Shown here one piece after another: positions 3,921-50,456 of a stretch of 64,000 nucleotides of DNA. How positions within the stretch are numbered: position 1 is the stretch's first letter; each line of letters opens with the position of its first letter. The stretch lies in the IMG/VR virus record IMGVR_UViG_3300038393_002515; one strand, 5' to 3'. Below the pieces are notes generated by a model. That model worked only from the letters and a program-made list of their open reading frames with translations, was not told the DNA's origin and made no database searches. The stretch comes from a virus. A program made the translations under genes and the position numbers.

Positions 3921-3956
3921 GCTGTCCCGGCCCGGCGGCTCCTCCCCAAGGGGTGA
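3921..3956 (+). promoter_or_regulatory. Bipartite late-gene element copy 1 (GCTGTC-N23-GGGGTGA)
   Basis: GCTGTC 3921-3926 and GGGGTGA 3950-3956. CCTCCC 3941-3946 can pair with the SD GGGAGG 3976-3981. Endolysin ATG is at 3989. Confidence 0.6.
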
Positions 3957-3988
3957 GATCTCACACCACCCCTTCGGGAGGGCACCCC

Positions 3989-4858
3989 ATGACCACGACC
4001 CCCGACTGGCGCCGCCTGGTCGACCACGTCCAGTCCATACCCGAGAAGATCTACGAGACCTGGAACAGCCGCGACGGCTGGGACAACCACACCATCTTCG
4101 GCAAGGAGTACGGCTGGGACGGTGTGGCCTGGTGCTGCATCTTCGACTGGGACATGTACCACGACTGCGGCCTCGACGCGATCGTCCCCAAGACCGCGTC
4201 CGTCGCGGGCATGACCGCCTGGGCCAAGCAGAAGGGCCAGTGGAGCGAGTACCCGAGCATCGGCGCCTGGGTCAACTTCTCCAACGGCGGCCACACCGAG
4301 ATCGTCGTCGGCTTCGACGAGACGTGGGTGTACACCAAGGGCGGCAACAGCATCCAGACCGGGTCCGAGGACAACGGCCAGGGCAACGGCGTCTGGTCCC
4401 ACACCACCGCCCGCCGCGCCACCAAGGTCGTCGGCTACTTCGCCCCGCACTTCCCCGACGGCGTCTGCCCTCCCACCGCCGACCCCAACGACCCGCGCGG
4501 CGGCAAGGCGGTCGCCTCCTGGCGCTGGTCGCCGCAGGTCACCCCCGCGCCGACCAAGCCGACCCCGTCCACCCCGGCGCCGACCAAGCCGAAGTGCCCG
4601 GCCTTCCCCGGCCGCCAGTACTTCAAGCTCGGCGCGAAGAACAAGTACGCCAAGCAGCTGCAGACCTGGCTCGACAAGGGCAACTGGGGCCCCAAGTACG
4701 TCATCGGCCCGTCCGACACCATGACCCAGAAGGACCTCGACAAGGTCAAGGCGCTGCAGGCGCACTACCTCTCCGCGCTCGGCCCGGCCGACGGCCTGTG
4801 CGGCCCGAAGACCTGGCAGTACGCCTTCGAGGTCGCCAACGGTCTGCGCAAGAAGTAG
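3989..4858 (+). CDS. Endolysin: N-terminal CHAP-type amidase/peptidase plus C-terminal peptidoglycan-binding domain
   Basis: Cys (GVAWCCIFDW) and His (GGHTEIVVGFDE) spacing typical of CHAP. Pro/Thr linker with a repeated APTKP. C-terminal LQ..L...GP.DG.CGPKT motif as in PG_binding_1. SD GGGAGGG lies 7 nt before ATG 3989; the listed GTG 3953 sits inside the repeat element. Confidence 0.85.
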   Translation: MTTTPDWRRLVDHVQSIPEKIYETWNSRDGWDNHTIFGKEYGWDGVAWCCIFDWDMYHDCGLDAIVPKTASVAGMTAWAKQKGQWSEYPSIGAWVNFSNGGHTEIVVGFDETWVYTKGGNSIQTGSEDNGQGNGVWSHTTARRATKVVGYFAPHFPDGVCPPTADPNDPRGGKAVASWRWSPQVTPAPTKPTPSTPAPTKPKCPAFPGRQYFKLGAKNKYAKQLQTWLDKGNWGPKYVIGPSDTMTQKDLDKVKALQAHYLSALGPADGLCGPKTWQYAFEVANGLRKK

Positions 4859-4868
4859 CACGCACGGT

Positions 4869-4906
4869 GAAGGCCCGGATTGTGATCATCCGCAATCCGG
4901 GCCTTC
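4869..4906 (+). terminator. Hairpin, intrinsic-terminator-like, after the endolysin gene
   Basis: GAAGGCCCGGATTG (4869-4882) / CAATCCGGGCCTTC (4893-4906): 14-bp perfect stem, 10-nt loop. Confidence 0.6.
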
Positions 4907-4909
4907 GCC

Positions 4910-4945
4910 CTGTCTGGCATGCACGCGGCTGCCGCCAAGGGGTGA
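4910..4945 (+). promoter_or_regulatory. Bipartite late-gene element copy 2 (CTGTC-N24-GGGGTGA)
   Basis: Starts 4 nt after hairpin 4869-4906. GGGGTGA 4939-4945. Next start is ATG 4987. Confidence 0.6.
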
Positions 4946-4986
4946 AGACGCCCCCACACCACCACCCTGAAGCAGGAGTTGCGCCC

Positions 4987-5337
4987 ATGGCCCAGCAGAC
5001 CGACCCCACCACCCTGGGGGACCTGTGGCGGATGATCGAGCGTGACTCGAACCTCACCCGCGAACAGGTCAGGCGTGAGATCGACGACGTCAAGGGTCGT
5101 CTGCAGAGCTTCGTGACACGCGACCACTTCGAGGCCGAGAAGCGGCTGCTGGAGGCCCGCATCGACCACCTGGAGCAGGTCGTCGAGCGCTGGGAGCAAG
5201 AGGCCGAGGAGCAGGCCAGGTCGACCGCCGCCCAGGCCGACTCCCGCAGGCAGAGCCGCCGCGAGTTCGTCTACAAGGGGATCATCCCGGTCCTCGCCCT
5301 CGTTATCGCGGTCGTCTCCATCGTCGCCTCCCGCTGA
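4987..5337 (+). CDS. Tail-anchored membrane protein with coiled-coil (candidate lysis accessory / holin-like)
   Basis: MAQQTDPTT... with a charged heptad-like middle part and one C-terminal hydrophobic helix (GIIPVLALVIAVVSIVA). Sits directly after the endolysin. Function inferred from position only. Confidence 0.6.
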   Translation: MAQQTDPTTLGDLWRMIERDSNLTREQVRREIDDVKGRLQSFVTRDHFEAEKRLLEARIDHLEQVVERWEQEAEEQARSTAAQADSRRQSRREFVYKGIIPVLALVIAVVSIVASR

Positions 5338-5343: not shown

Positions 5344-5379
5344 GCTGTCGCTCCACCGGCGGCAGACCCCAAGGGCTGA
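5344..5379 (+). promoter_or_regulatory. Bipartite late-gene element copy 3 (GCTGTC-N23-GGGCTGA)
   Basis: One mismatch in the 3' box. CCACCGGC 5353-5360 pairs with GCCGGTGG 5404-5411, enclosing the SD GAGGGAGG and the start GTG 5408. Confidence 0.55.
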
Positions 5380-5407
5380 AGGAAACAGGCCGTTGAGGGA
5401 GGCGCCG

Positions 5408-8236
5408 GTGGGCGGCAAGTTCGAGCGCGGCGAGCGCCTGGAGCACCAGACGCTGGGCGTGCAGCGGCTCGCGGTGCGCTCCGAGGACTACTGGGAGTAC
5501 AAGCCCGAGCAGCGCGTCCGGACGATCGACGGCGTCACCGGCGTTGTCAAGCACGTCGAGGACGGACCCTTCCCCGGTGCTGAGGAGTATCACGTCGTCC
5601 TGGACCGGGGCATGGGTGGCGGCCAGTACACCGCCTCGCAGCTCAGCCCGGCCCCCATCACCACCGAGGCCATGGAGCAGACGGCGGCCGCCGACTACCC
5701 CGAGCTCTCCCAGATCCTCGTCGAGCGCCCGGACCCGGCCCGCCAGTTCGTCACGGCGGGCAAGAACCCCTTCGCCGATGACGACAACGACGATGACTCC
5801 TCTGACGAGGGCGACGACTCTCATGACGACTCGCAAGACGACCCACATGACGAGGACGACGACTCCGACGAGGACGACTCGGACGACGACTCCGACGACA
5901 AGGACGCTGACGGCGACGACGCGCCTCCGTGGGCCAAGAAGGCGTCCTCCCTCTTCTCCGACCTGGTTGTGACGGCTGCCACCGATGTCGACTTCCGCTT
6001 CCACATCACGGCCGCCTGGCGCGACGTGGTGGCCAAGGCCAAGCGGATCCGTTCCGAGGGCCGCCTGCGCGTCACTCTCGCCTCCGACGGCTACGTGTTC
6101 GGCGAGGTCAAGGGTGACCACCACGTGTACGAGACCGGCCTGCAGCGCCTGCCTGGCCGGGTGGCCGCGCACTCCTGGTCCTGCGGCTGCAAGTGGGGCG
6201 CCTACCACTGGGGCGCCGACGACGACTTCTCCCGGTTCGCCGGGCGCATGTGCTCCCACGCCCTGGCCCTGCAGTACGAGGCCCAGTCGAGGGGGATGTT
6301 CGGCCGCGACATTCACGTGGACGAGCACAAGCCCACCTGGGTGCCCCGCAAGGTCGTCGTCCGCTACGACATCGACGCCGACACCAACCGGCTCGCGCCG
6401 TCGACCGCCCGCAAGCTCGCCTCGTGGGACGCCCCTGAACCCTCCATGTGGGACATGCATTACGGCGACGACCACGACCACGAAGCCGAGCGCCAGGCCA
6501 AGTCGGACGAGTGGGACAGCATTCACGAGGGACTGGGGGACATCCATCGAGGCGTGAACGTCCACCTGCGCCCCGAGGATCACGCGATCGTCCACGACGA
6601 GTCCCGGCCGCTACACGAGCGCGCCCAGCACCTGCTCAAGTCGCTCCCGCACAGCGACCTGGGCCGTGGCCGCGAGGGCCTGGGACGACACTGGACCGAC
6701 AACGAGGGCGTGGCTGAGTCCTTCGGTGACATGGACGACCGCCCGAACCGGCACGGCACGCACCCGACCTCGGTCATCTTCCACGCCGAGAAGCCCGACC
6801 GGCACGCGATCGACGAGGACCCGGACCAGTCGGACGGGATGATCTACGGCTACCACGACCACGGCGAGAGCGAGATCCCGCTCCACCCTGGGGCCGGGGT
6901 GAACCTCAAGGGCATCTCCTGGAAGAACATGGACACGCCCGACGAGGACTTTCGGACCTTCAAGGGCGACGGCCTCTTCGATCACTACTGGGAGCACCAG
7001 CGTCACGACTTCCCGGGCGGCCAGCACGCCTACGCGTCGCTGAGCAAGGCCCCGTTGTCCACCGTCGCGCGCGCTGCCGTGGCGGCCGGTGAGGACAGTG
7101 CCGAGGTCGAGTTGGCCATGCGCACGGTGGGTATTCGACGGACGGCCAGCAGCTGGGACGAGTACCACGAGGACGAAAACGGCCGCCGGTACACCCTCGA
7201 CGAGGACGGCGAGCCGAACTACACCTGCCACAACAAGTACTGCGACGAGGGCGGCGAGCACGGCGGCGACGGCGAGACCGCACAGCGGCACGACGACGTC
7301 TACACCGACTGGGACACCGTTCACCCGCACCTCGGTCCGCACCTCCACCGGGGCATGGCCGTCAGCCTGCCGGACGACGTGCACGGCGTCGTCCATGACG
7401 ACGGCAGGCCGGTAGAAGAGCGCGCGAGCGCGCTGGCCGACCACCTTCGCGAAGAGGGGCTCGGTACGCACTGGACCCCGAACCACGACCAGGCCAGGCA
7501 CTACTCGGGCATCACCGACGGCCGGGACCGCGACACACACGTCATCCTGCACGCCCACACCCCGGCCAAGGAGCACATCGAGACCGACCCCGACGAGCTG
7601 GCCCGCCAGGACGTCATCGCCATGGGCGACCACGACGACGCCGAGGTGCCTCTGCAGTCCGGCGCCCCGGTGAAACTGAAGGGCATTTCCTGGAGGCACC
7701 GTACCGACAAAAAGTGGACCCGGCACGACTTCCCTGGCGGCCTGCAGCACGAGGCCAACGCCAACGCGCCGTTCGGAGAGCCGTCGGGGACGTCGTACGT
7801 GCTGCCCAAGGCGCCGGGTGCGACGGCGCCGAAGAAGCCGTGGGAGAACCCGGCCTCCGCCGGGCCGCTGGCGGGCGCGGACCCGGCGGGCTGGAACCGG
7901 CAGCTGCCGCTGCAGTCGTACGCGGGCATGGACACCGCGCTGTTCGAGCCCGGCGGTACGGAGGCGACGCTGCACGACGAGCCGGAGGGGGCGCTGCCGT
8001 CCACGGACGGTGCGGTGCCGACGGACGAGGCGTCGGATCTGACGCCGTCGATGACGGCGGGTCTGAAGCGGCAGGCGCTGAAGGACTTCACCTTGGCTGA
8101 GCAGCAGGCGCTGATCAACGAGGGCGAGAACGTGCGGGCGGCGAACCTCGACCGCCTGGACATCAAGGGGACCCACTACGCCGACCTGGAGAGCGTCCTG
8201 GCGGCACAGGAGGAGGACACCACATGGCTGGCCTGA
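5408..8236 (+). CDS. Large SWIM zinc-finger protein with poly-Asp tract and two tandem ~120-aa repeats (polyvalent/ejected-protein-like)
   Basis: SWIM signature SCGCKWGAYHW...RMCSHALAL (nt 6182-6259). Asp-rich run nt 5777-5920. Internal repeat HRG..V.L..D.H..VHD..RP..ERA...GLG.HWT...LKGISW at nt 6545-6928 and 7346-7699. Start taken as GTG 5408 after SD GAGGGAGG. Confidence 0.75.
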   Translation: MGGKFERGERLEHQTLGVQRLAVRSEDYWEYKPEQRVRTIDGVTGVVKHVEDGPFPGAEEYHVVLDRGMGGGQYTASQLSPAPITTEAMEQTAAADYPELSQILVERPDPARQFVTAGKNPFADDDNDDDSSDEGDDSHDDSQDDPHDEDDDSDEDDSDDDSDDKDADGDDAPPWAKKASSLFSDLVVTAATDVDFRFHITAAWRDVVAKAKRIRSEGRLRVTLASDGYVFGEVKGDHHVYETGLQRLPGRVAAHSWSCGCKWGAYHWGADDDFSRFAGRMCSHALALQYEAQSRGMFGRDIHVDEHKPTWVPRKVVVRYDIDADTNRLAPSTARKLASWDAPEPSMWDMHYGDDHDHEAERQAKSDEWDSIHEGLGDIHRGVNVHLRPEDHAIVHDESRPLHERAQHLLKSLPHSDLGRGREGLGRHWTDNEGVAESFGDMDDRPNRHGTHPTSVIFHAEKPDRHAIDEDPDQSDGMIYGYHDHGESEIPLHPGAGVNLKGISWKNMDTPDEDFRTFKGDGLFDHYWEHQRHDFPGGQHAYASLSKAPLSTVARAAVAAGEDSAEVELAMRTVGIRRTASSWDEYHEDENGRRYTLDEDGEPNYTCHNKYCDEGGEHGGDGETAQRHDDVYTDWDTVHPHLGPHLHRGMAVSLPDDVHGVVHDDGRPVEERASALADHLREEGLGTHWTPNHDQARHYSGITDGRDRDTHVILHAHTPAKEHIETDPDELARQDVIAMGDHDDAEVPLQSGAPVKLKGISWRHRTDKKWTRHDFPGGLQHEANANAPFGEPSGTSYVLPKAPGATAPKKPWENPASAGPLAGADPAGWNRQLPLQSYAGMDTALFEPGGTEATLHDEPEGALPSTDGAVPTDEASDLTPSMTAGLKRQALKDFTLAEQQALINEGENVRAANLDRLDIKGTHYADLESVLAAQEEDTTWLA
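5777..5920 (+). repeat. GAC/GAT-rich low-complexity tract encoding ~48 mostly Asp/Ser/Glu residues
   Basis: DDDNDDDSSDEGDDSHDDSQDDPHDEDDDSDEDDSDDDSDDKDADGDD, read directly from the frame of the 5408-8236 CDS. Confidence 0.9.
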
Positions 8237-11992: not shown

Positions 11993-12027
11993 CTGTCCGG
12001 GCGCACCTGTACGTCGGCAAGGGGCGA
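11993..12027 (+). promoter_or_regulatory. Bipartite late-gene element copy 4 (CTGTC-N23-GGGGCGA)
   Basis: CTGTC 11993-11997 and GGGGCGA 12021-12027. Next start is GTG 12053, after SD GAGGAG. Confidence 0.55.
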
Positions 12028-12052
12028 AGAGTCCCCGGCCCGAGGAGACAAG

Positions 12053-12358
12053 GTGCTCACGCCCCCAGCCATCATCCGGACGATCGTCCCCTCGATCGTC
12101 GGCTTCATCCTGGCGTTCCTCGCCTCGCACAACATCCATGTCAGTGCCGAGGTCGAGACGTACCTGACCGGCCTGCTGACCGTGGGTCTCGGCGGCGTCT
12201 ACTACGTCGTCGCCTCTGCTCTGCAGTCGCGCTGGCCGCTCGCGGGCCTGCTCCTCGGCTCCACCGCTCGGCCGACCTACACGGGACGGCACCGCCTGAC
12301 CAGCGCCACCGATCCGACGACCGCCACGTCGGATCCCACTCCGGAAGACCGGCCGTAG
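12053..12358 (+). CDS. Small two-helix membrane protein (holin-like topology)
   Basis: VLTPPAIIRTIVPSIVGFILAFLAS ... LTGLLTVGLGGVYYVVASAL: two hydrophobic helices and a polar tail. SD GAGGAG lies 5 nt before GTG 12053; the listed ATG 11948 extension looks non-coding. Confidence 0.6.
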   Translation: MLTPPAIIRTIVPSIVGFILAFLASHNIHVSAEVETYLTGLLTVGLGGVYYVVASALQSRWPLAGLLLGSTARPTYTGRHRLTSATDPTTATSDPTPEDRP

Positions 12359-12686: not shown

Positions 12687-12721
12687 CTGTTCGTCACACC
12701 CCCTCCGCCCCCAAGGAGCGA
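12687..12721 (+). promoter_or_regulatory. Bipartite late-gene element copy 5 (CTGTT-N23-GGAGCGA, degenerate)
   Basis: CCCTCCGC 12701-12708 can pair with GCGAGGG 12718-12724 (one bulge). Next start is GTG 12762. Confidence 0.45.
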
Positions 12722-12761
12722 GGGCGCACCATGCGCCGCCGCCCGCACAGGAGGACCCGGT

Positions 12762-15700
12762 GTGCTGAAGTTCGCCACGGCCCAGATCATCGCCGCGTCG
12801 CTCGGCGACCAACAGCGCATCACCAGGGCGGCCCACCGCGCGGTCTTCCAGTACGAAGCGCGCCCCGGCTTCTTGTACGTACGCAGCAGGGCCATCAGTT
12901 CACGCTGCAACGACAACTTCGACGAGTTCCCCGCCGAAGAGATCGAAAAGTCGTACAAGACCTTCGTCGGCAAGCCGGTCTTCGTGAACCACGTCAACGA
13001 CAACCACCGGCGCGCCCGGGGCGTCATCATCGACGCCGCCCTCCACCGAGACCGCAACCCCGACGGCACGCCGGACACATGGGCCGAAGTCCTCATGGAA
13101 ATCGACGCCGTCCGGTTCCCGAAGCTGGCCAAGGCGATCCTCGCCGGACACATCGACCGGACCTCCATGGGCTGCGACGTCGAGCGCTCCGTGTGCTCCG
13201 CCTGCGGCAACGAGGCCCGCACGCCCACCGAGTACTGCTCCCACATCCCGCACCTGAAGGGCAAGCGCATCTTCCGCGCCACCGCCAGCGGGAAGAAGGT
13301 CGGCGAGCTCGTCCGCGAGACCTGCTTCGGCCTCCGGTTCTTCGAGAACAGCGTGCTCGTCGAGCCCCCGGCGGACCCGACTGCTCATTTCCTCGGCGTG
13401 GACTCTTCCGGCCTCGGCAAGGCCGCCTCGAAGAGCGCCGCGATCGACTACTCCGCCTTCGAGGACAACGACGACCTGGAGGCGGACGACGACGGCGAGG
13501 ACACCGCGCCTCAGCCGAAGCCCGCCTACCCGGCCTCGCACGCCAAGTCGCCGGTGCCGCATGTCCCGTTCGAGGGCACCACGCACGACCACCAGCGCCG
13601 CCAGGACGCGGTGCAGCACGCCCGGCCCTTCACGCCGCTCAAGCCGAGCCTCAACGGCCTGCAGGCGACGGCGGCCGCGAAGAAGCCCGCGCCCAAGGCG
13701 GCCGAGCCCGAGGTGGACGAGTACGGCACCCCGAAGCCGAAGCGAGGCCAGCCGTACGAGCCTGCGGGAGACCACCCCTGGTACAAGCAGGTCCCGCTGC
13801 ACCACTCCAACATCGTCGACCACTGGGACAAGGCCACCGACGAGGAGAAGGACTCGGGCATGCGCTGGTACAGCGACGCCCACCACGTCGCCAAGGCCAT
13901 CGCCCGCCTCGACCCGCGCATCAAGACCGACGAGGAGGCCGCCCACAAGGGCGCCGGTGTCCTGTCGGCCTACAGCCCGCGCACCAACTGGCCGCAGAAC
14001 ATGTTCAACGCGGCCCACTCCTTCCACCGCCAGGCCGCCGTCCGCCCTCTCAAGGACGACCCGGACAAGCCCGCCCACGTCACCACCATGGGTATGCACG
14101 CCGACAAGGCGCAGCGCATCATGGACGGCGAGCACCACCAGCCGGTCCTGAACTCGCCCAAGACGCAGGACTTCGCCCACCTCATCGAGCACGGCGGCTA
14201 CGAGCCGCAGACCGAGGAGGAGAAGAAGTCCGGTGCCGAACGGCGGCACAGCGGCCGCGTGGTCATCGACCGCCACGCGCTGTCCGTGGCGGCCGGGCGC
14301 CGGATCACCGACGTCGAGAACGACGCCCACCAGGGCTTCCCCGGCGCCTCCAGCGGCAAGCACGCACGGCACTACTACGAGCACGCCGCCAACACCTACC
14401 GCAACGCGGCCGCCGCCATCTCCGAGAAGGAGGGCAAGCCGGTCGCCGCGCACCAGGTGCAGGCGGTGACCTGGCTGGTGCGCCAACGGCTCAACACCGC
14501 CGAGGACCAGGCCAACGCGAACGCCAGCGCGAAGAACCTGGGCGCGGGCCGCAACAAGGCCGAGGAGAACATCAAGGGCCACTGGAAGGACTTCGCGGGC
14601 GAGCACACGCCGGAGCTGAAGGAAAAGGGCAACTCCCACGTGGCCAGGCTCATTGACGCCACGTACATCAACGACGACGGCACGATCCGCGCCATCGCGT
14701 ACGGGGAGATCAAGGCACCGGCCGACGTCGACACGCTCCGCGAGGAGAACTGCCCGGTCTGCGGCGACAAGGACACCTTCGACGGTATCCAGTGCCAGAT
14801 CTGCGGGTTCATCAACCCGCCCGAGCAGTTCCGTGACCCCGACCTCGACAAGGCCAAGACCCTCGACCTGCGCAAGCAGATCGTCGACCCCAGCCTCGTC
14901 GACGACAACGGCGAGCTGCAGCGTGTCAACGACGACGGCACCGGCATGCCGCAGGAAGACGGCATGCCTGGCGACGAGGAACAGCAGCTGGGCCCCGACG
15001 GTCAGCCGCTCGACGAGGACGGCCCGCAGATGGTCGACCCCGAGCAGCTCGACGAGAACGGCCTGCCGCCCTCCCCGTGGGGCGACCAGACCCTCGACGG
15101 CACGATGCAGGGTGCCCCGACCTTCTCCGACCGCAACGGCGACGGCATGATCCAGCCGGACGAGATCGACCCCGACGGCAACGTCAACGTCCAGCAGAAC
15201 ATGATGGTCGACCCCGAGCAGGGCGGCCAGGCAGGCCCGCGCGAGCTGCCCGGCCGCGCCAGGGACCGCACGGGCGACCCGTTCACCCCCGGCCCCGACA
15301 TGCCCCGCCTCCAGGGCCCCGAAGGACCGGAAGACGGACTGGACGACGAAGACACCTTCCAGGCCGGTCCCGGCATGGGAGCTCCGCAGGAGCCGATCCT
15401 GGCGCACCCCGGCGACTACACCGGCGACGAGAGCGAGACGCCGCACTGGTCCTGGAACAGGGACGTGGACGAGGAACCCCAGGCGCCCAACGAGGACGAG
15501 GACCCGCAAGACCCGCGTCGCCGACGCCTTGGGATGTCGGCGGCCCCGCGCACCCCGAAGGACGGACAGCCGAACGACGGCGCGCCCGACCTGAGCTGCC
15601 CCCACTGCGGATTCGGAGCGGACGCCACCGCCCCGCAGACCCAGGACATGGGCAACCCGCAAGGCGCGACCGACGGCATCGTCGCCGGAGACGTCTGCCC

Positions 15701-15794: not shown

Positions 15795-15859
15795 AGCGGT
15801 GAAAACCCGCCCACGGCAAGTCGTCGTGAGCTGAAACAGGCTTTGAAGGAGTAACCAGT

Positions 15860-16729: not shown

Positions 16730-16741
16730 GCCACTGAGCGC

Positions 16742-18866: not shown

Positions 18867-18867
18867 T

Positions 18868-39432: not shown

Positions 39433-39504
39433 TCCGGGTCCCTTCCTAGGCGGTTGTCGCCCCACATCTTGCCGCACCGGCGTTGCCCGGGTGCGCAGGA
39501 CCCC

Positions 39505-39539
39505 GTGTTTCACCCCCGATTTGAAGCGGAAGGGGGTGA
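39505..39539 (+). promoter_or_regulatory. Bipartite late-gene element copy 15 (GTGTT-N23-GGGGTGA, degenerate 5' box)
   Basis: TCACCCCC 39510-39517 pairs with GGGGGTGA 39532-39539. SD GGAGGTGG and ATG 39551 follow. Confidence 0.45.
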
Positions 39540-39550
39540 GGAGGTGGCTC

Positions 39551-40001: not shown

Positions 40002-40135
40002 GTCCGCTGAATCGGTATGGTGGTGCGCCTCGGGCGACGCGCGTCCGATTCAGCAGAAGACCTCACCGCTCCGAACCGGGTGACGCCGGGGAGCACCGGG
40101 GTCGGCGCGGCCCCCAGTTCCAGCTGGAGGCAGAA

Positions 40136-40172
40136 GGCGGAGTCCACCCATAGGGACTCCGCCTTCATTTTT
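40136..40172 (+). terminator. Canonical rho-independent terminator
   Basis: GGCGGAGTCC (40136-40145) / GGACTCCGCC (40154-40163), followed by TTCATTTTT. Confidence 0.75.
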
Positions 40173-40208
40173 GCTGTGCGGTGCCTTCCTCTCGTCCTCA
40201 AGGGGTGA
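40173..40208 (+). promoter_or_regulatory. Bipartite late-gene element copy 16 (GCTGTG-N23-GGGGTGA)
   Basis: Abuts the terminator's T-tract. GCCTTCCTCTCGTC 40183-40196 pairs with GACGAGAAGGAGGGC 40207-40221 (one bulged A), burying the SD AAGGAGG. ATG is at 40227. Confidence 0.65.
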
Positions 40209-40226
40209 CGAGAAGGAGGGCGCCGC

Positions 40227-42077
40227 ATGGGTGTTTCCAGGGACGACATCGTCTCGCAGATGCGTGACGCGCTGCTGGTGTCCGACCCGGAGCTGGACAC
40301 GTCCATCGGCACCCCGGTGCGGAAGATCCTGGACGCGGTCGCAGCGTCGCTGGCCGACGCCTACGTCGAGAACCACCTGCTGTCGTACGCCTACGACATC
40401 GACAGCAAGACGGACGCCGACCTGGACTCCTTCTGCCAACTGTTCGGCATCGCGCGGATCGCGGCCCGGCGCTCGGTCGGCACGGTGACCTTCTCCCGGA
40501 CCGGCGACCTGACCCCGACCGTGTTCATCCCGGTCGGCACGGAGATCGCGTCCTCGTCGGACTCCTCGGTCGTGGTCACCACGGTGGTCGGCGGCACGCT
40601 CATGCCGGGCGCCTCGTCGGTCACGGTGCCAGTCCAGGCCGTGACGGCCGGTCCGGAGGGCAACCTGGGTGCGGGGATGGCCACCCAGATCACCTCCCCG
40701 ATCCAGGGCGTCAACACCGTCACGAACACGGCTGCCTTGACCGGTGGCCTGTCCCGGGAGACCGACTCGGAGCTGCGGACCCGCTGGAAGTCGACCGTGT
40801 TCCGGTCGCTTGCCGGTACGGAGCAGATGTACCGGGGCGTGGCCCTGGACGACACCGACTGCTACGCGGTGTCCGTCGTCGGCTCCTCCCGGACACGATC
40901 GGAGATCCTGCAGGTGCCCGCGACCGGCAACACGGTCTGCCAGATCACGGACGCCCGCTACATCTACTCCTCGCCGGTGCAGGTGACGAAGTCCGACGGC
41001 ACGCCGCTGATCAAGGACTACGACTACACGTGGATCCCGTCGAATCCGCCCGCCATCGCCGGACTGTCGGCGTCGTTCCCTGCGGCCGGTGAGCTGCTCA
41101 CGGTCGAGTACCAGTACCTGCCGGTAGTGAGCCGGAACGACCCGGCGAACAACATCACGAACCGGGTGGACATTTTCGTCGGCGGCACCCGGGCGCAGTC
41201 GGCCCAGACGTCGCTGGTGTTCAAGCAGACGAAGAGGTTCCAGACCGTCTCGACTGTGGACCTGTACACCGGGGCGTGGCTGCGGTCGGACCAGACACGG
41301 CCGGACGCGAACAACGTCTTCGTGCCGCTGCCGTTCGGGCCGATCGTGACCGTGCCGTCCACGATGTCGGTCGCGGGCACGACGTACGGTCTGGCTACGA
41401 CGGCACACCCGCTGGGTACGGTGGCCAACGGCGTGACGTACGCGTACACGGTTGTCCATGAGGACACGGTGGACGGCTGGACGCCGACCTCGCGCTTCGG
41501 CCTGGAGTGGCACCGCACCTACCTGCCCGCCGACAACTCGCCGGTCTCCGTCGGCGGTAACGGCGACTACACCTACAACGAGGTACCCGCCTCGGTGCAG
41601 GACGCGGTCAACCGGTGGCGGTTGACAGGGATCGACGCCCAGGTTCACCAGGCAAAACAGCGCTGGCTGCGGTTCGCGCTGGGCGTGATGTACACGGCGT
41701 CGTCGACTGGGTCGGTTGACTCGGTCCAGGACGCCATCCGGTCCGCCTTGAGTGACTACCTGAACCGGATGGACTTCAACTCCAACGTCCAGATCAGCGA
41801 CGTCCTCACAGTCATCCACCAGGTACCCGGCGTGGACAACTGCCGCCTGCTCAACGGCGCGGACGTGACCGGCTACACCTCGGCCAACCCGAACGCGTCG
41901 ATCGTGGGCGTCCAGCAGATCGCTCCGAACGCGGCTCCGAACTCCGCCGCGCTGTTCTCCCACGTCGACCCGGCAACCGGCCGGGCCAAGGACATCTACT
42001 TCCGCGACGACGAACTGCCCGTGCTCGGAGGCGTGGTCTTCAAGACCCTCGCCCGCAACTCCTTCGGGGTGCTGTGA
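40227..42077 (+). CDS. Baseplate J-like protein
   Basis: 616 aa. N-terminal third matches the Baseplate_J pattern (...GTPVRKILDAVA...DLDSFCQLFGIARI.A..SVGTVTF...VPVQAVTAGPEGN...ALTGG...ETDSELR.R). Confidence 0.8.
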   Translation: MGVSRDDIVSQMRDALLVSDPELDTSIGTPVRKILDAVAASLADAYVENHLLSYAYDIDSKTDADLDSFCQLFGIARIAARRSVGTVTFSRTGDLTPTVFIPVGTEIASSSDSSVVVTTVVGGTLMPGASSVTVPVQAVTAGPEGNLGAGMATQITSPIQGVNTVTNTAALTGGLSRETDSELRTRWKSTVFRSLAGTEQMYRGVALDDTDCYAVSVVGSSRTRSEILQVPATGNTVCQITDARYIYSSPVQVTKSDGTPLIKDYDYTWIPSNPPAIAGLSASFPAAGELLTVEYQYLPVVSRNDPANNITNRVDIFVGGTRAQSAQTSLVFKQTKRFQTVSTVDLYTGAWLRSDQTRPDANNVFVPLPFGPIVTVPSTMSVAGTTYGLATTAHPLGTVANGVTYAYTVVHEDTVDGWTPTSRFGLEWHRTYLPADNSPVSVGGNGDYTYNEVPASVQDAVNRWRLTGIDAQVHQAKQRWLRFALGVMYTASSTGSVDSVQDAIRSALSDYLNRMDFNSNVQISDVLTVIHQVPGVDNCRLLNGADVTGYTSANPNASIVGVQQIAPNAAPNSAALFSHVDPATGRAKDIYFRDDELPVLGGVVFKTLARNSFGVL

Positions 42078-43697: not shown

Positions 43698-43733
43698 GCT
43701 GTTCTTCAACCCTCCGGCGTCACCAAGGGGTGC
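43698..43733 (+). promoter_or_regulatory. Bipartite late-gene element copy 17 (GCTGTT-N23-GGGGTGC)
   Basis: CCCTCCGGCGTC 43710-43721 pairs perfectly (12 bp) with GACGCCGGAGGG 43739-43750, which contains the SD. The loop is ACCAAGGGGTGCAAGGA. ATG is at 43763. Confidence 0.65.
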
Positions 43734-43762
43734 AAGGAGACGCCGGAGGGAGCCACACCGAC

Positions 43763-46700
43763 ATGGCCGACCTGTACGCCAACTACGCCGCGCTGGCCGC
43801 CGCGCGGCAGATCGGTGTGGACTACCGGATCCTGGTCCGTACGCCTCCGGGCTCCCGGCTGGCGCACATCGCCATCCACGGTGGCGGCATCGAGCCGGGC
43901 ACCACGGAGGTCGCGGACTACCTGGCCGGGTCAGCCAGCCGGTTCTACTCCTTCGACGGCATGCTGACGTCGGGAAACAGCGACCTACACATCACCTCGA
44001 CGAACTTCGACGAGCCGCAGGCCCTGGACCTGGTCGCGGCCGCCGACTACGTCATCTCCTGGCACGGCGCGGCCGGGGCCGAGCCGATCACTTACGTCGG
44101 CGGCCTGGACACAGAGACGGCTGAGCGGATCAAGGAGGCTCTGGAGCAGGCAGGATTCACGGTGTCGCCTGCCAGCGAGGAGCTGAACGGCGGCGACCCG
44201 GCGAACATCTGCAACAAGGGCACCCGGCTCATGGGCGTGCAGATGGAGCTGTCGCTGGGCCTGCGGCAGTCCTTCTTCGAGGACTTCACCCGGCCCGGCC
44301 GGGACAGCGGCGCGCGCACCTCGGTCTTCTACGCCTACATGGTCGCGATCCAGACGGCACTCAACGGCCTGGACGTGCCGGGCAAGGCGATCGGGTCGGC
44401 GTGGAAGGGCCGGGTTGCCCAGCCCGTGACCGGCACCGGGTCGGCGTCCGGAGACTTCGGTATTCCGGCCCTGGCGCCGTTGACCGTGGACGGCATGCCG
44501 CTTGACTCGCTCAAGGACGCGTTGCGCCTGTCAACTCAGCGGCAGGCGTCGGGCAACATGGAGCGGTTCTGGTCAAGTGCCCCCCGCGACAACGGTGACC
44601 CGGTGCGGGAGGTGTTCGAGTTCTCGCTGGCCACGGCCCGGCCGGTCAACCGCGTCTCGTTCTCTCTCGCGCGGTTCCCGCAGCGGGCCTGGGTGCAGTA
44701 CCGCGACGCCGACGGGCTGTGGCGGCCGCTGCAGAACGCGCGCCTGGGCGGCCCGGTCCAGATCAGCATCCTGGACTCGGTCCCGGCGGTGATCCCGGCC
44801 GGTGTGGCCGACGACGTGAAGCTGCACCCGCAGCACTTCGGTGCCGGGCACTGGATGGCGCAGGAGGTCGACGTCCAGCCGGTCACGGCGAGCCGGTTCC
44901 GGATCGTCATGACCCGGCTGCCGTCGTCGGCGTACCCGCGCGGCTCGGACAACCAGCCGGTTGCCTACTCACTCGGGGTCAAGGACGCGCTGGTGTCCTA
45001 CCGCGCCTCCAGCTTGACCGACCTGCCGTGGCTGCCGCAGCAGGACGCCGAGCACACGGTGCCGATTGCCGGGTCAACCGACCTGCTCGGCTCCCAGGTT
45101 GACTACCTGCTCCGGCGCAACCGGGCGGACAACCTGGTACCACCCGCGAGCGGCGTGTGGCGTTGCGCACCGCAGCCGGTCCCGAACGCCGTGGTGAGCC
45201 TGTACCTGGACCTGCGGACCTCGGACGGCAGCGCTCAGGTCGTGGACCGGCTCTACGTTGACCCGGTCACGTCGGGTGTGTCGTGCAACCTGTACTACAC
45301 CGACGCCACGGTGGTGCCTGAGCGGTTCGAGCCGTCCGACGCGCCCTTGACCTTGCCTCTTGTCCGGGCAAGCACGGACACCCCGGTCGTTGACAGCGAG
45401 GGCGTGCTCTTTGACTCGGCCGACTCCTACCTCGACGTGGACAACAGGGCCTGCCAGTTCGACCCGGGCCAGCCGTTCCTGATGGGCATGGTGGTCTACC
45501 CCCAGTTCACCTCCGGCGACACCGGTCAATTCACCGTCCTGGACACCCCGGCCATGACCATCTGGTTCGAGGCCGGGTCGGTCAAGGTGCGCCTGGGTGA
45601 CCGCACAGTGGAGATGGACCCGGTCACGTTCGGAGTCAACGAGCGGATCCCGCTGGCGGTTGCCTACGACGGGTCGACGTTGACCGTGCGCACCCCGTGG
45701 TCAACCCGGATTCAGGAGGCAACTCACGTCGTTGCCCAGGCACCGCCGAACGTGATCCGGCTCGGCGGCCCGCTCTCGGGTCCGGGCGGCTCGATCCGGT
45801 TGCGCAACCTCTTCCTCGCGCTCGGGCGCGCCGCCGACGTCGACACCATCGAGGCCTACTGGGACGACCCGGCGGCCTACGCCCTCAGCCCCGGCTACGG
45901 GCAGGACGGGACCGCGCACACCAGCGCCAGCGCGATCTTGCGGATGGACCCCAGCCTGATCACGGCTGGGCAGGAGTCGGTGTGTCCGTGGGGGCTGATC
46001 GGTGGCCCGCCGGTCGCTCTGGACGACCTGGTGTGGACACCGGTCCCCGGGGACTTCACCCTGCGCAAGGGGCTGATGAAGTTCCGGCCGATCAAAGCCC
46101 GGCATCTGAAGATGGAGTTCACCAACCTCCAGCCGATGGTGCTGACGCCGTCGCAGGCCTCGCCGCTGGTGGAGACCAGGCTGTTCCCGGCCGACACCGG
46201 GCAGGGGTCCAGCATCGTCGCGTCCGGCGCGACCGTCTCCGGCGCGGCCCCGGCGGGCGCCCGGGTCGCCACCGAGCAGGGCGCGGTCTACCAGTACGTG
46301 GACGCCAACCGGATCGTGTCCTCCACGTCCAGCAGCGCCCCGTACCTGCCCACGGAGGCCCTGTACGCGCCGGATCCGCTCGCAGCGCAGCAGCTGCGCC
46401 GCTCGGGCCAGCGGTTCCCGTACATGCCGCTGCCGGGCACCAAGGCGCCGCGCTTCACCAGCACGGGAGTGCACCGCTACCACGTGGTCCAGCTGGCCAT
46501 GGACACCAAGGTCGGCTACACCGTCGCTCTGTCCCAGGTCCTGGCCTACCTGGCCGACCCGGTCGCGCAGCGCGACACCGAGCAGTACGTCGAGCTGTTC
46601 CACGACACGGCCTACCTGTCCGGCTACGACGCGTCCCAGCAGGGCGGATGGAAGCACACCGGCACTGCGATGGTCACCACCGATCAGCCGCCGTCCCAGG

Positions 46701-47944: not shown

Positions 47945-47953
47945 GGAGCCTCT

Positions 47954-48775
47954 GTGCGCGCGCACTTCAACCGCGCCCTGCTCGACCTGCAGGGCAACCA
48001 GGTCCCCACCGCCACGGTGCGGCTCCTGGCCCCTGGCACCACCACGCCGTACGGCCAGACCATCTACGCCGACGCGACCAGCGGTACGACCCGCACCAAC
48101 CCGTGGACGACCACGACCGGCGAGGTGGACTTCTACCTCGACGCCCCGGACCGCGTACGGATCGGTGTCCAGGTCGGCACAGACCCGGAGGAGTTCTGGG
48201 ACAACGTCGATGTGACGGCCGTCGGTACCGACTCCACCCATCCCGGCTCGGGCAACCAATCCCTGCAGATCGGTGTCGGCGCGGCCGCCACCGGTGTGCA
48301 CTCCGCCGCGCTGGGGCAGGGCGCCCAGGCCACCGCTGACTCCACCGTGGCGGTGGGCGAGCAGGCGACGGCCTCCGGCGTCGGGGCTGTCGCCACAGGC
48401 TCCCAGGCGGACGCCACGGCGCCCGGCGCGGTTGCGCTCGGCCAGTCGGCGCTGGCGCAGGGCACCCAGGCCACGGCCATCGGCGATGCCGCGAAGTCGC
48501 AGTGGAACCATTCCACCGCCGTCGGCGCGGGCGCCCAGACCGACCGCCCCCACCAGGTCGTCATCGGCACGTCGGCCGAGACTGTCTTCTTGCCCGGCGG
48601 GATCGCGCTGCAGAGCCCCAACGGCAGCACCTTCATGGTCGGCGTCACGAACGACGGTCTGCTGTACACCCAGCAGCTGCCCACCTACGTGCCGCCGCCG
48701 GTACCGGACGAGGGCTCGGGCGAGAGCACGGGAGACGGCGGGGACACGCTCCCGGGCGACGTCAGCGGGGGCTGA
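47954..48775 (+). CDS. Tail fibre protein with Ala/Gly-rich YadA-head-like repeats
   Basis: SD AAGGAG before GTG 47954. Repeats of the form S.A.G..A.A....(S/T)VAVG. N-terminal domain is paralogous to those of the 48843 and 51790 products. Confidence 0.7.
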   Translation: MRAHFNRALLDLQGNQVPTATVRLLAPGTTTPYGQTIYADATSGTTRTNPWTTTTGEVDFYLDAPDRVRIGVQVGTDPEEFWDNVDVTAVGTDSTHPGSGNQSLQIGVGAAATGVHSAALGQGAQATADSTVAVGEQATASGVGAVATGSQADATAPGAVALGQSALAQGTQATAIGDAAKSQWNHSTAVGAGAQTDRPHQVVIGTSAETVFLPGGIALQSPNGSTFMVGVTNDGLLYTQQLPTYVPPPVPDEGSGESTGDGGDTLPGDVSGG

Positions 48776-48794
48776 CGCCGGTTATCTACTCCTT

Positions 48795-48829
48795 GCTGTG
48801 CCGCGCCTCCCTCGTGACTGAAGAGGTGA
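48795..48829 (+). promoter_or_regulatory. Bipartite late-gene element copy 18 (GCTGTG-N22-GAGGTGA)
   Basis: CCTCCCTCGT 48806-48815 pairs perfectly with ACGAGGGAGG 48829-48838 (SD). Start is GTG 48843. Confidence 0.55.
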
Positions 48830-48842
48830 CGAGGGAGGCGAA

Positions 48843-50456
48843 GTGGCGCGAGCACATGTGATGCGGCCGATCATCGGTGACACGGGCGACCTGTTGTACG
48901 GCGCGCAGGTCACCGTGCGCGAGGCCGGACAGTCGGTGAAGGTGGCTCAGCCGATGTATGCGGGGCCCACCGGTGAAGAGCAGCTGACGAACCCGTTCAT
49001 CACCGCCAACGGCGTGATCGACTTCTGGATGGACACCCCGCAGCGGGTGTCGGTCCTGGTCCAGAAGGACGGCTTCTCCGACATCCTGGTCTACCTCGAC
49101 GCCGCGCCGCCGCCGGAGGAGACCGCCCGGACCGACAGTCCGCTGCTGATCGTCGGCGACCAGGTACCGGGTAACGTGCTGCTCGCCGGTGACACTCCTG
49201 GGCAGGCCGTGTGGGGGCCGGTCCCGGCCAACTCCGGCGTCACCCCGAGGGTCACCGTCATCAACGAGGACTTCGACCTCGCCCGTGACCCGGCAGGCTG
49301 GACATTCACTCAGGCCGCGACCAGCACCCGCGACTACCCGGCCGAAGCACCCACCGACTGGGGCTACAGCCGGTCTCTGCACGGCAAGCACACCGGCAAC
49401 GCGGGCGACCTCGTCGTCGTCACGCCGGGCTTCACCCTCACCGAGGCAGGCTTCGTCTCCCTGTGGGTGCGGCCGACCCTGGCCACCGGAGAGAGCGTCA
49501 TCATCGCCGCCACCACCCAGGGCGGCACGAAGACCGTGCTGGAGACGCTCACGCAGACCCGGCCGTGGGGCTTCTACCGGTACCCGCTCGCCGCTGGCAC
49601 CTACCAGTCGGTCTCTGTCGAGTTCAAGGGCGCGGCCGCCTTCGTGGCGGGCTCCGGCCACGAGATGTGGACAACCGGCCTGCAGGTCCTGTACGGCGGC
49701 ACGGTTCCCACGCACACCCACTCCGGCTCCGGCACCGGCTCCGTCGCACTGGGCACTTCGGCCGCCGCCTCCGGTGTCGCCTCCGTCGCCATCGGCACCT
49801 CCGCTCAGGCCACTGCCAGCAACGCCACCGCGTTCGGAGCCCGCGCGCAGGCCACCGCCACCGATGCCGTTGCCGTCGGCCCGGACTCCAAGGCGCTGTC
49901 CCAGAACGGCGTCGCGGTCGGGGCACGGGCCAACGGTTCGCTGGCGGCCACCGGATGGACGGCTGTCGGCGCGGACGCCTACGTCGACTCCACCGACGGC
50001 ACCGCGATCGGCCGCCAGGCCAAGGTGTACGGGCAGTCCGGGGCCGCGATCGGTCCCACCGCGTATGTCGGCCCCAGCGCGACCGGCGCCGTCGCGCTGG
50101 GGCAGAACGCGCAGGCCCTGGCCAGTGGCGGCGTGGCGCTCGGGCCGAACTCCGTCGTGGGGTCCACCCACAGCAACGCCACGGCGATCGGCAGCAACGC
50201 CAAGACCAGCGCGGCCCTGCAGACGATGTTCGGCAACCCCAGCGTCACCAGCGGTGCCGTGATCTTCTGCGGCAAGCTCTACGCCCTCTCCGCCGTCAAC
50301 CTGGGCACCGACGCCAGCTCCAGGCTGGGCTTCTTCGGCGCGGAGGGCACCGTCAAGCCCACCGTGACCGGCTCGGACGGCAGCAACCTCGCGCTGCGCA
50401 ACCTCATCTCCGCGCTGGCCGGACTCGGCCTGCTGATCAACAACACCACGAGCTGA
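48843..50456 (+). CDS. Tail fibre protein (paralogue 2) with YadA-head-like repeats
   Basis: N-terminal domain similar to the 47954 and 51790 products. Long run of (A/S).A.G..A.A repeats. C-terminal FFGAEGTVKPTVTGSDGSNLALRNLISALAGLGLL motif. Confidence 0.7.
   Translation: MARAHVMRPIIGDTGDLLYGAQVTVREAGQSVKVAQPMYAGPTGEEQLTNPFITANGVIDFWMDTPQRVSVLVQKDGFSDILVYLDAAPPPEETARTDSPLLIVGDQVPGNVLLAGDTPGQAVWGPVPANSGVTPRVTVINEDFDLARDPAGWTFTQAATSTRDYPAEAPTDWGYSRSLHGKHTGNAGDLVVVTPGFTLTEAGFVSLWVRPTLATGESVIIAATTQGGTKTVLETLTQTRPWGFYRYPLAAGTYQSVSVEFKGAAAFVAGSGHEMWTTGLQVLYGGTVPTHTHSGSGTGSVALGTSAAASGVASVAIGTSAQATASNATAFGARAQATATDAVAVGPDSKALSQNGVAVGARANGSLAATGWTAVGADAYVDSTDGTAIGRQAKVYGQSGAAIGPTAYVGPSATGAVALGQNAQALASGGVALGPNSVVGSTHSNATAIGSNAKTSAALQTMFGNPSVTSGAVIFCGKLYALSAVNLGTDASSRLGFFGAEGTVKPTVTGSDGSNLALRNLISALAGLGLLINNTTS

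Follow-up and report, generated by a model that had tools for sequence, protein, structure and literature searches.

A repeated two-box element in a Streptomyces phage-plasmid family is a possible late promoter whose spacer may mask the downstream ribosome-binding site

In bacteriophage T4, the Shine-Dalgarno sequence (SD) or start codon of genes e, soc, 49, I-TevI, I-TevII, I-TevIII and segB, and likewise of mobE in phage Aeh1, is held within a stable stem on upstream-derived transcripts, and a late promoter resides in the DNA encoding the 5' strand or apex of that stem, such that transcripts from the gene's own promoter lack this strand and are translated (PMC3014915, PMC2988022). Here we analyse a window of 64,000 nucleotides (nt) from the viral record IMGVR_UViG_3300038393_002515 of IMG/VR, in which a two-box element, tGCTGTC-N19-21-CAAGGGGTGA, recurs 5' of structural genes; its second box, hereafter the 10-mer, can also be written (C/T)A(A/G)GGGGTGA. 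We propose, as a reading that we regard as evenly balanced between right and wrong, that the element is a late promoter whose spacer doubles as an anti-ribosome-binding site (anti-RBS), forming a hairpin on read-through RNA only. The arrangement resembles the nested late promoters of T4 in that a stem buries the SD or start codon, the 5' arm being provided here by the promoter spacer, and most likely follows the logic demonstrated experimentally for T4 genes e, soc, 49 and I-TevI, here at many promoters. It is distinct in that the host and lineage are those of a high-GC Streptomyces phage-plasmid, and in that the promoter would be bipartite rather than TATAAATA. Moreover, the stem is found at some 9-10 of about 19 putative late promoters, including those of successive late units, whereas in T4 it is associated with a few late genes within early units, and the T4 case is experimental whereas the present one is known from sequence alone.

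For a repeated and partly mobile cassette, the closest analogue would be the promoter early stem-loop (PeSL) of T4-like phages, where repeated intergenic cassettes of promoter and stem-loop border variable genes and display copying and presence/absence polymorphism (PMC2839356, PMC4122927). Similarly, hairpins adjoin five of the first boxes described here, the site at 43699 is polymorphic, and a cassette of the type found at 24845 recurs at that site in relatives. However, the PeSL contains a sigma-70-type early promoter with a conserved stem-loop upstream of it, whereas the present element would be of late type and is enclosed by an additional, copy-specific stem. Cluster K mycobacteriophages carry start-associated sequences (SAS), a 13-bp GGGATAGGAGCCC located 3-7 bp from the start of non-structural genes, as well as extended start-associated sequences (ESAS), the arms of which have a conserved consensus (PMC3203893). 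As in our case, these are actinobacteriophage repeats in one orientation just 5' of gene starts, with an SD-like core and an inverted repeat in about half of them (PMC3203893). In contrast, SAS occupy the position of the ribosome-binding site (RBS) in the non-structural half of the genome and the variation of ESAS lends no support to RNA pairing (PMC3203893), whereas the element described here has another sequence, lies within the structural module with its 10-mer 10-57 nt from the start codon, and has copy-specific, covarying arms.

Within the window, the 10-mer is matched 13 times, as compared with 3.85 expected, and the two-box pattern 10 times, as compared with 0.81 expected. A looser scan finds 18 copies together with one degenerate copy at 39504, all of which are on the + strand and occupy intergenic gaps or overlap the ends of upstream genes. 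The close relatives of the window, with 73-91% nucleotide identity, are elements of ~150-157 kb in Streptomyces genome assemblies and many IMG/VR contigs, from which orthologous sites were fetched via the downstream gene and not via the motif; ungapped identity far downstream of the anchors is spoiled by indels and was left out of the comparisons. Among orthologs both boxes are invariant (~1.0 identity), and the spacer is the most variable segment (identity 0.45-0.9, with ~45% at the orthologs of the 28006 copy), also in those copies that have no stem. The spacing between the boxes in 164 unique family elements is 20 nt in 123 (75%), 21 nt in 23 and 19 nt in 18, and this range holds equally in copies without a hairpin. 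The sequence 5' of the TG that precedes the first box shows no conservation in this set, and the 3' end of the spacer is rich in C, which is present at 54-68% in the three positions before the last spacer base. A pair of conserved boxes whose separation is constant to within 1 nt, while the sequence between them is free to vary, is the layout of a bipartite (sigma-70-family-like) promoter. A literature search for the 10-mer returned unrelated primers only. A MerR-type long-spacer promoter, a sigma-54 promoter, an arrangement like lambda Q/PR', a miniature inverted-repeat transposable element and a CRISPR-like repeat were also considered, and were dropped because the spacer is hypervariable without an operator, -24/-12 boxes are absent, the copies are too many and the arms are not conserved.

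The location of the copies is that expected where transcription units begin, since + strand copies are found directly after terminator-like hairpins and after minus-strand blocks. Such hairpins end at the first box of the copies at 4910, 18869, 20682, 29675 and 40174, and a sixth lies ~30 nt 5' of the copy at 16805; a T-run follows the hairpin at 40174, where a canonical 13-bp stem is succeeded by ATTTTT. Each of the two minus-strand blocks is followed by + strand genes, the first of which has a copy 5' of it (11993 and 39504). In pRLB1-9.1, a complete relative in the form of a circular plasmid of 154,158 bp from Streptomyces sp. RLB1-9, 17 of the 18 copies fall within the late module, which extends from 118.5 kb through the origin to 19.2 kb, and comparison of the gene table with the copy positions shows that most intergenic gaps of at least 55 nt in this module hold a copy; a single copy is situated outside it, at 39.5 kb, with none elsewhere in the ~95 kb early region. 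We infer that the element is recognised as double-stranded DNA, that is, as a promoter, because of the fixed spacing, the variable spacer, the late-module location, the adjoining terminators and the copies that follow minus-strand blocks. The outlying copy of pRLB1-9.1 (L097 39518-39570) lies in the replication region, 5' of a 48-codon open reading frame (ORF) and a J-domain protein gene, and has a spacer/RBS stem CTCCCTG/CAGGGAG.

The element is not a promoter of the housekeeping type, as judged by a scan for the consensus TTGACA-17-TATAAT, which gave no match at any copy and a density of one site per 20 kb, as in shuffled sequence, although the scan was blank in late and early regions alike and gives no contrast between the two. 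Large proteins that lack annotation in pRLB1-9.1 gave matches to GNAT, ART and 2'-5' ligase domains, and none could be recognised as a phage RNA polymerase. The early/middle region of this plasmid encodes a 130-aa protein with a sigma-70 region 4 domain (Pfam Sigma70_r4_2, E = 4.5e-6) at L098 1744-2136, equivalent to pRLB1-9.1 51744-52136, and this protein is a candidate for recognition of the CTGTC box; the element is probably read by the host RNA polymerase in conjunction with a phage-specified factor. A WhiB-family protein and a LuxR-type helix-turn-helix protein are encoded in the nearby replication region. The geometry suggests that transcription starts at or just after the end of the 10-mer. 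A separate SD is present between the 10-mer and the start codon, and because the shortest distances between the two are 10-15 nt, and the SD overlaps the 10-mer at the 34904 copy, the SD-bearing transcript would have to begin close to the 10-mer end. A start at position 9 of the 10-mer would place TGCTGT at -35 to -30, in the canonical 17-bp geometry.

The sequence-only reading had proposed that the elements fold into hairpins that bury the SD in at least nine copies. The seven pairs of arms that it listed are all present, five of them as perfect reverse complements, 40183/40207 with the bulge it had described and 26302/26331 with one G.A mismatch. The folding that it had suggested also bears out the stability of the leaders: taken from CTGTC to start codon +12 and compared with dinucleotide shuffles, 12 of the 19 have z < -2, with extremes of -5.6 (5345), -6.8 (40174) and -7.2 (48796). 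Stems that include the SD and/or the start codon are found in roughly nine to ten copies, namely at 5345, 20682, 24845, 26295, 29675, 34904, 40174, 43699 and 48796, with weaker ones at 11993 and 12687, so that the count stands but masking is not a general property of the element: such a stem does not hold at ~8 other copies, and specific complementarity between spacer and leader was not found in about half of the copies and ortholog groups (in the window, 4910, 15769, 16805, 18869 and 28006).

Because pyrimidine-rich spacers pair generically with purine-rich SDs, we used a control in which partners were swapped between copies. Spacers pair with their own leaders at a mean of -16.95 kcal/mol and with swapped leaders at -13.5 kcal/mol (p = 0.0006), and with the translation start region (-18 to +6) at -21.4 as compared with -16.8 kcal/mol, a value that was equalled in 0 of 20000 permutations. 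In addition, perfect stems of at least 8 bp bridging the 10-mer occur in 4 of 18 copies as compared with 1.45% of random positions (P ~ 1e-4). Across the family, a Watson-Crick stem score of at least 7 is reached by 62 of the 164 unique elements, and by 12 when the spacers are shuffled; z < -2 relative to spacer shuffles is seen in 19% of these elements, with significance limited to a subset of ortholog groups, and the signal is concentrated at the sites 24845, 26295, 40174, 43699, 48796, 20682 and part of 28006.

Compensatory variation, which had also been claimed, is observed in a cassette family of 14 sequences, where 6 of 19 pairs are altered on both sides. In this alignment 91.3% of the cells are paired, as compared with 85% in shuffles and 48-58% with slid partners, and the covariation score of 0.186, as compared with 0.112, is reached by 0 of 500 shuffles. 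Examples include CTCTGC/GCAGAG in L035 as compared with CTCCGT/ACGGAG in L043; CGGCCC/GGGCTG in the window as compared with CGCCCC/GGGGCG in relatives at 26295; TGCC/GGCA as compared with CGCC/GGCG at 48796; and, when the 24845 cassette is set against the paralog that L018 and L059 carry at the 43699 site, GGTCC/GGACC as compared with GCGCC/GGCGC. Within a single orthologous site, change is mostly one-sided, affecting the spacer, and the 3' arm, contributed by the leader, is almost invariant. For the 26295 ortholog set, a search of viral contigs for more relatives of the gene found none. In distant Streptomyces relatives the equivalent sites carry unrelated perfect stems, ACGCCCTCCCAAC/GTTGGGAGGGCGT in L095 and GCCTCTCCTT/AAGGAGAGGC in L096, and at the orthologs of 20682 and 28006 pairing is kept in shifted registers. 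A copy-specific, covarying structure over the SD or start codon would act most naturally at the level of RNA and translation.

The site 5' of the poly-gamma-glutamate hydrolase tail gene (window 43690-43765) is polymorphic among relatives, as seen when L058, L066, L068, L069, L071, L073 and L075 are compared with L009, L018/L059, L022/L067 and L002/L063. Some relatives have no element there, just a gap of 10-20 nt with an SD; one version is common to the window and L070, and a near copy of the 24845 cassette is present in four relatives, including L018 and L059. It would thus appear that promoter cassettes are acquired, lost or copied from site to site.

Such mobility lends itself to an explanation in which the complementarity has no function, with template-switch (quasi-palindrome) mutation and the copying of cassettes creating perfect inverted repeats and mimicking compensation. 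The near copy of 24845 at the 43699 site in L018 and L059 and the presence/absence polymorphism would then be expected, as would stems that are perfect over 10-13 bp, which one-step copying of an arm would yield, and the one-sided drift of spacers within orthologous sites; inverted repeats are, moreover, common in this GC-rich DNA, with 106 pairs in the window. We nevertheless consider this very unlikely, because the enrichment is specific to the spacer and leader of the same copy, pairing recurs with the unrelated stems of L095 and L096, and the register-shifted pairing at 20682 and 28006 orthologs argues for retention by selection.

We suggest that the promoter spacer, being free to vary, has been moulded into an anti-RBS in about half of the copies, its sequence complementing that of the leader, SD or start codon 3' of it. 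RNA crossing the promoter from upstream would carry both arms and form a hairpin of -25 to -48 kcal/mol in which the RBS is buried; RNA initiated at the promoter would be devoid of the 5' arm, leaving the RBS open, with the SD and start codon at the very 5' end of the mRNA. Formation of the hairpin would be limited to RNA from upstream because the 5' arm, the spacer, is upstream of the putative start site; this arm lies between the two boxes, and a start anywhere 3' of the second box would exclude it. Possible sources of such read-through RNA are the late unit that comes before, embedded genes (thyX, for example) and leaky transcription during the plasmid-prophage state. On this view, translation of the gene that opens each unit would depend almost wholly on transcripts from that gene's own promoter. 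No terminator separates the box from the co-directional gene before it at 3922, 5345, 24845, 26295 and the 43699 site, where the gap between gene end and box is 5-22 nt. The predicted probability that the RBS is unpaired in read-through RNA is 0.00-0.10 at 24845, 26295, 29675, 34904, 40174 and 48796, and for RNA beginning at position 9 of the 10-mer it is 0.28-0.61 at these same six copies; the contrast over 17 copies has a Wilcoxon p = 0.0005, with a predicted rise of 3-fold to >100-fold.

The sequence-only reading had envisaged translational gating of late proteins by the buried SD and display of the 10-mer in the loop. Gating as such is retained, since the SD or start codon is covered, but it fits read-through RNA rather than the productive late mRNA. 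A hairpin in the working mRNA fits poorly because the spacing is kept without a hairpin, the spacer is variable, terminators end at the box and copies follow minus-strand blocks, and a stem of -35 to -48 kcal/mol there is hard to reconcile with high expression of baseplate, tube and fibre genes. Display of the 10-mer has to be abandoned: in unconstrained folds GGGG(U)G is paired, either to the C-run that closes the spacer or to a CACCCC on its 5' or 3' side, leaving only CAA or CAAG at the apex, and GGGGTG is mostly unpaired in just 9 of the 164 elements, equal to a control with shuffled flanks, so that exposure of the 10-mer is selected neither for nor against. The pairing of GGGGTG with CACCCC that had been reported for a minority of copies is present at 3922, 16805 and 39505.

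These results bear on the model, put forward in that reading, that the whole hairpin resides in the productive late mRNA as a regulon-wide translational operator, with CUGUC and the 10-mer as RNA recognition elements and the buried SD opened by a phage RNA-binding factor or by docking of the 30S subunit on the SD-like 10-mer as a standby site; if true, this would represent a second late switch, at the post-transcriptional level, by which about ten structural genes are controlled together. In a related variant, the 5' end of late mRNAs would lie at the 10-mer or just 5' of it, where the SD-like sequence would act as a ribosome-docking or stabiliser element. The stems do cover the SD or start codon and covary, and in hairpin copies the stem starts right after CTGTC and closes around the 10-mer, which is conserved over ten contiguous bases and strongly SD-like, GGGGUGA pairing with the anti-SD with one G.U. 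We nonetheless judge the operator model distinctly unlikely. The 10-mer is predicted to be paired, with an exposure no greater than with shuffled flanks, and the partner of its GGGG is not constant, being the spacer C-run, an upstream CCACCCC or a downstream CACCCC depending on the copy. About half of the copies are stemless yet have both boxes at a distance of 19-21 nt, a constraint that would not be expected of a flexible single strand, and the adjoining terminators, like the position of copies behind minus-strand blocks, call for a promoter where no other conserved motif is present. Rfam 15 gave 0 matches at the gathering score for the 64-kb window on either strand. Indeed, a structured cis-regulatory RNA would have its stem in all functional copies and its conserved motif unpaired at the apex, and neither is observed. 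Lambda nut sites (boxA/boxB) and the coat-protein operators of RNA phages are similar in that a linear box is followed by a variable stem around a conserved apex, but in these systems the stem is found in every copy and the loop is displayed, whereas here half of the copies are stemless, the 10-mer is mostly paired, and there are ~19 copies, one per late unit.

Several observations weigh against a late promoter with a nested anti-RBS. The boxes are unlike any nameable promoter consensus, ten contiguous conserved bases are long for a -10 region, and setting the 99%-conserved A as -11 gives an atypical 20-bp spacer; it is from its anatomy that the promoter call is made, and the SD-likeness of the 10-mer hints at a role at the RNA level. 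Successive late units each carry a hairpin, which would block read-through from the preceding late promoter as well, and a purely temporal rationale is therefore incomplete; the role looks more like insulation of units than purely temporal control. At 20682, 29675 and 40174 a strong terminator-like hairpin upstream and a strong embedded hairpin are both present. Pairing to the start region is not significant when the long-leader copies are taken alone (p = 0.14), and in part of the 28006 orthologs the spacer pairs with the proximal leader instead of the RBS. Finally, G.U and C.A within the stems number 7 and 14, respectively, counts that are dominated by one site; there is no excess of G.U over C.A, and the counts do not discriminate RNA from DNA pairing.

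The behaviour of the long-leader copies, and of those 28006 orthologs in which the stem is centred on the 10-mer and not on the RBS, would also suit an explanation in which the element is still a promoter while the hairpin within it benefits the unit 5' of it, whether by terminating or pausing transcription or by protecting the 3' end. In an intergenic gap of ~60 nt such a stem-loop would find no free sequence other than the promoter spacer and the leader, so that the RBS would be covered as a by-product of geometry, an arrangement reminiscent of the PeSL promoter-terminator cassettes. The embedded stems (-35 to -48 kcal/mol) are as stable as the separate terminator-like hairpins (-37 to -47 kcal/mol), and they are found at 7-8 of 11 sites without a separate hairpin as compared with 3 of 6 sites with one, a trend that is not significant. 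However, no T-run follows the embedded stems, and a terminator scan reported the hairpin at 40133-40166 but none of them. Mycobacterial RNA polymerase reportedly needs a U-tract at intrinsic terminators, which we count against a terminator role. At 40174 a canonical terminator is already located directly 5' of the element, and the spacers at 5345, 11993 and 12687 find their specific partner not in adjacent sequence but 25-40 nt further 3', around the start codon. Service to the upstream unit therefore seems unlikely, although tailless embedded hairpins may act as 3'-end stabilisers.

The lack of a G.U excess, by which RNA is not demanded by the sequence, together with a repeat centred on the conserved 10-mer, would be compatible with a structure in DNA, namely a cruciform or single-strand hairpin that presents the promoter to polymerase, as for the N4 virion polymerase and the single-strand promoters of conjugative plasmids. 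We find this barely credible. The stems contain bulges and mismatches and have a GC-rich centre, the repeat is missing from half of the copies, the folded form would leave neither box as duplex, pRLB1-9.1 has no recognisable phage polymerase, be it a giant one like that of N4 or another, and the 3' arm is the RBS, which points to translation. The hairpin promoter of N4 has a short conserved stem of 5-7 bp, a 3-nt loop and a dedicated polymerase, whereas the stems here measure 8-25 bp, differ from copy to copy and are lacking in half of them, and thus do not conform to the N4 type.

The individual copies, all on the + strand, differ in how the putative promoter, the stem and the start codon are disposed, and we describe first those with a strong stem over the RBS. 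In the copy at 5345..5410 (box 5345-5349, 10-mer CAAGGGCTGA at 5370-5379, GTG 5408) a long-range, extendable stem 5353-5360 / 5404-5411 covers the SD and the GTG (z -5.60; rank 1 of 17). The copy at 20682..20743 has the box CTGTT, the 10-mer CAAGGGGCGA at 20707-20716 and ATG 20741, and its stem 20691-20698 / 20729-20736 over the SD also has rank 1; the spacers of its orthologs pair in the shifted registers noted above. A terminator-like hairpin at 20644..20679 lies 3 nt 5' of TTGCTGTT and follows gene 19623-20630, the pRLB1-9.1 counterpart of which is annotated as a fibronectin type III domain protein. At 24845..24896 (10-mer 24870-24879, GTG 24894; z -4.31) a perfect 10-bp stem 24851-24860 / 24883-24892 is extended by GC/GC and by an inner helix CCCU/GGGG. 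The copy at 26295..26346 has a 19-nt spacer, the 10-mer at 26319-26328 and ATG 26344 (z -3.18), and its stem 26300-26313 / 26329-26341 displays a G-C to C-G flip relative to its relatives.

The copy at 29675..29736 (10-mer TAGGGGGTGA at 29700-29709, ATG 29734; z -2.88) has a stem 29682-29703 / 29712-29733 over the RBS, and its TGCTGTC adjoins a terminator-like hairpin at 29639..29672 that follows the sheath gene. At 34904..34951, 5' of the NlpC/P60 tail protein gene, the box is CTGTG and the start codon GTG 34949; the last bases of the 10-mer CAAGGGGCGG (34929-34938) are overlapped by the SD, and the stem 34911-34926 / 34933-34948 has rank 1 (z -3.72). The copy at 40174..40229 precedes the baseplate J gene, with the box CTGTG, the 10-mer at 40199-40208 and ATG 40227, and forms a near-continuous stem 40174-40199 / 40203-40230 of -44.6 kcal/mol (z -6.77). 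The canonical intrinsic terminator at 40133..40172, composed of the 13-bp stem 40133-40166 and ATTTTT, leads directly into its GCTGTG. At 43699..43765, 5' of the poly-gamma-glutamate hydrolase tail protein gene, the box is CTGTT, the 10-mer CAAGGGGTGC is at 43724-43733 and the start codon is ATG 43763, and a perfect 12-bp stem 43710-43721 / 43739-43750 covers part of the SD (z -2.48). The copy at 48796..48845, 5' of the YadA-like fibre gene, has the box CTGTG, a 19-nt spacer, the 10-mer GAAGAGGTGA at 48820-48829 and GTG 48843, and a stem 48797-48815 / 48829-48850 with the perfect core 48806-48815 / 48829-48838 (z -7.16).

Two copies have weaker stems. At 11993..12055 (10-mer 12018-12027, GTG 12053), 5' of the first + strand gene after a minus-strand block, a moderate stem GCACCT.../AGGTGC lies over the start codon (z -2.52), and at 12687..12762 (box CTGTT, 10-mer CAAGGAGCGA at 12712-12721, GTG 12760) the spacer pairs over a long range with the start region (z -2.95). 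The copy at 28006..28070, 5' of the tail sheath gene (10-mer 28030-28039, ATG 28068), has a weak stem in the window (z +0.33), and in its orthologs in L086 and L031 the spacer forms a stem of 11-13 bp with the leader proximal to the 10-mer.

The remaining copies lack a stem between spacer and RBS or show none of significance. In the copy at 3922..3991 (box CTGTC 3922-3926, 20-nt spacer, 10-mer 3947-3956, ATG 3989) the spacer/RBS stem is absent and the 10-mer AAGGGGTG pairs with CACCCCTT downstream (z -2.18). No significant hairpin is present at 4910..4989 (box 4910-4914, 21-nt spacer, 10-mer 4936-4945, ATG 4987; z -1.31), where a terminator-like hairpin at 4862..4913 with a 19-20 bp stem ends at the box, nor at 15769..15862 (10-mer GAAGCGGTGA at 15793-15802, ATG 15860; z -0.30), which overlaps the stop codon of the upstream gene. 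The copy at 16805..16898 (21-nt spacer, 10-mer TAGGGGGTGA at 16831-16840, ATG 16896; z -1.65) lies ~30 nt 3' of a terminator-like hairpin at 16738..16774 with a 13-bp stem, and CCACCCC of its spacer pairs with its own 10-mer, leaving the RBS uncovered. The copy at 18869..18939 has a G-rich spacer, the 10-mer at 18894-18903 and ATG 18937, and no spacer/RBS stem (z -0.35); its box is directly adjoined by a terminator-like hairpin at 18829..18870, CTCGACCCCCGGG...CCCGGGGGTCGAG. The degenerate copy at 39504..39553, 5' of the first + strand gene after a minus-strand block, consists of CGTGT, 21 nt and AAGGGGGTGA (39530-39539), with ATG 39551, and its TTCACCCCC pairs with the 10-mer (z -1.27).

In the copy at 18746..18780 the 10-mer TAGGGGGTGA (18771-18780) is followed by a short conserved segment and then by the hairpin 18829-18870. 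Only ~50-90 nt 3' of this copy are kept in relatives (GGTTTGTGGTGGGCCCTC...GCGGCTCCGTTCTCCGGCCGC), after which comes the hairpin that adjoins the next copy. The unit from promoter to hairpin, 18746-18870, could be a small late RNA or an ORF of ~38 codons from GTG 18790. At three copies a GTG within CAAGGGGTGA is in frame with the downstream ORF (3953, 24876 and 43730), and mechanical ORF lists therefore start these three genes inside the 10-mer; the SD-supported starts are further 3', at 3989, 24894 and 43763.

The window has a GC content of 66-70% throughout (~68% mean) and nearly all of its genes are on the + strand. It carries myovirus structural genes, including those for the tail sheath (28068-29594), baseplate J (40227-42077) and the NlpC/P60 tail protein, and also encodes a 1404-aa tail protein with a poly-gamma-glutamate hydrolase domain as well as pectate-lyase-like and YadA-like fibres; a helicase region is located at its right end. 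Within the structural module, thyX, encoding a flavin-dependent (FAD) thymidylate synthase, is found at 23742-24461, just 5' of the strongly gated units at 24845 and 26295, and is a plausible source of non-late read-through RNA. The palindrome GTGACATGCATGTCAC underlies a perfect repeat of 19 nt, present at 37687-37705 and again at 37722-37740, the arms of which overlap (window 37672-37740); the repeat lies 5' of a region with a minus-strand ParA-type gene and is a candidate operator or partition site. Three perfect or near-perfect hairpins of 15-17 bp with short loops, at 8671-8708, 12391-12437 and 18476-18512, are positioned at gene ends where the motif is absent, and are probably terminators or 3' stabilisers.

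A near-identity search of a phage collection with the window gave no match, and a protein search found distant phages only, with ~29% sheath identity to Myrna, Gordonia phages and Rhodococcus phage E3. We assign the window to a phage-plasmid family because its close relatives include the plasmid pRLB1-9.1, which has parA, ParB-like genes, tyrosine recombinases, DnaE and DnaB alongside a myovirus structural module; no published description of pRLB1-9.1 was found. This plasmid also carries an ATP-grasp pair for a ribosomally synthesised and post-translationally modified peptide (tgmA with MvdC/D-like).

What would be new here, and we hold this with confidence that is evenly divided, is a previously undescribed late-promoter consensus in a new phage-plasmid family, with an anti-RBS nested in about half of the promoters, the class of mechanism being known from T4. 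The stems also carry a caution, in that covarying stems 5' of genes need not be part of the productive mRNA. If our reading is true, the late-promoter consensus, and hence the late regulon, would be defined for an uncharacterised family of ~155-kb Streptomyces phage-plasmids, and a T4-style promoter inside an RBS-masking hairpin would have arisen independently in a high-GC actinophage. The nested hairpin would then be a general design rule across many late units and not an exception for a few genes, and could supply compact promoter/insulator parts for Streptomyces engineering. For the phage-plasmid itself, it would insulate neighbouring late units from one another and provide a way for the plasmid-prophage to silence tail lysins and fibres despite read-through transcription.

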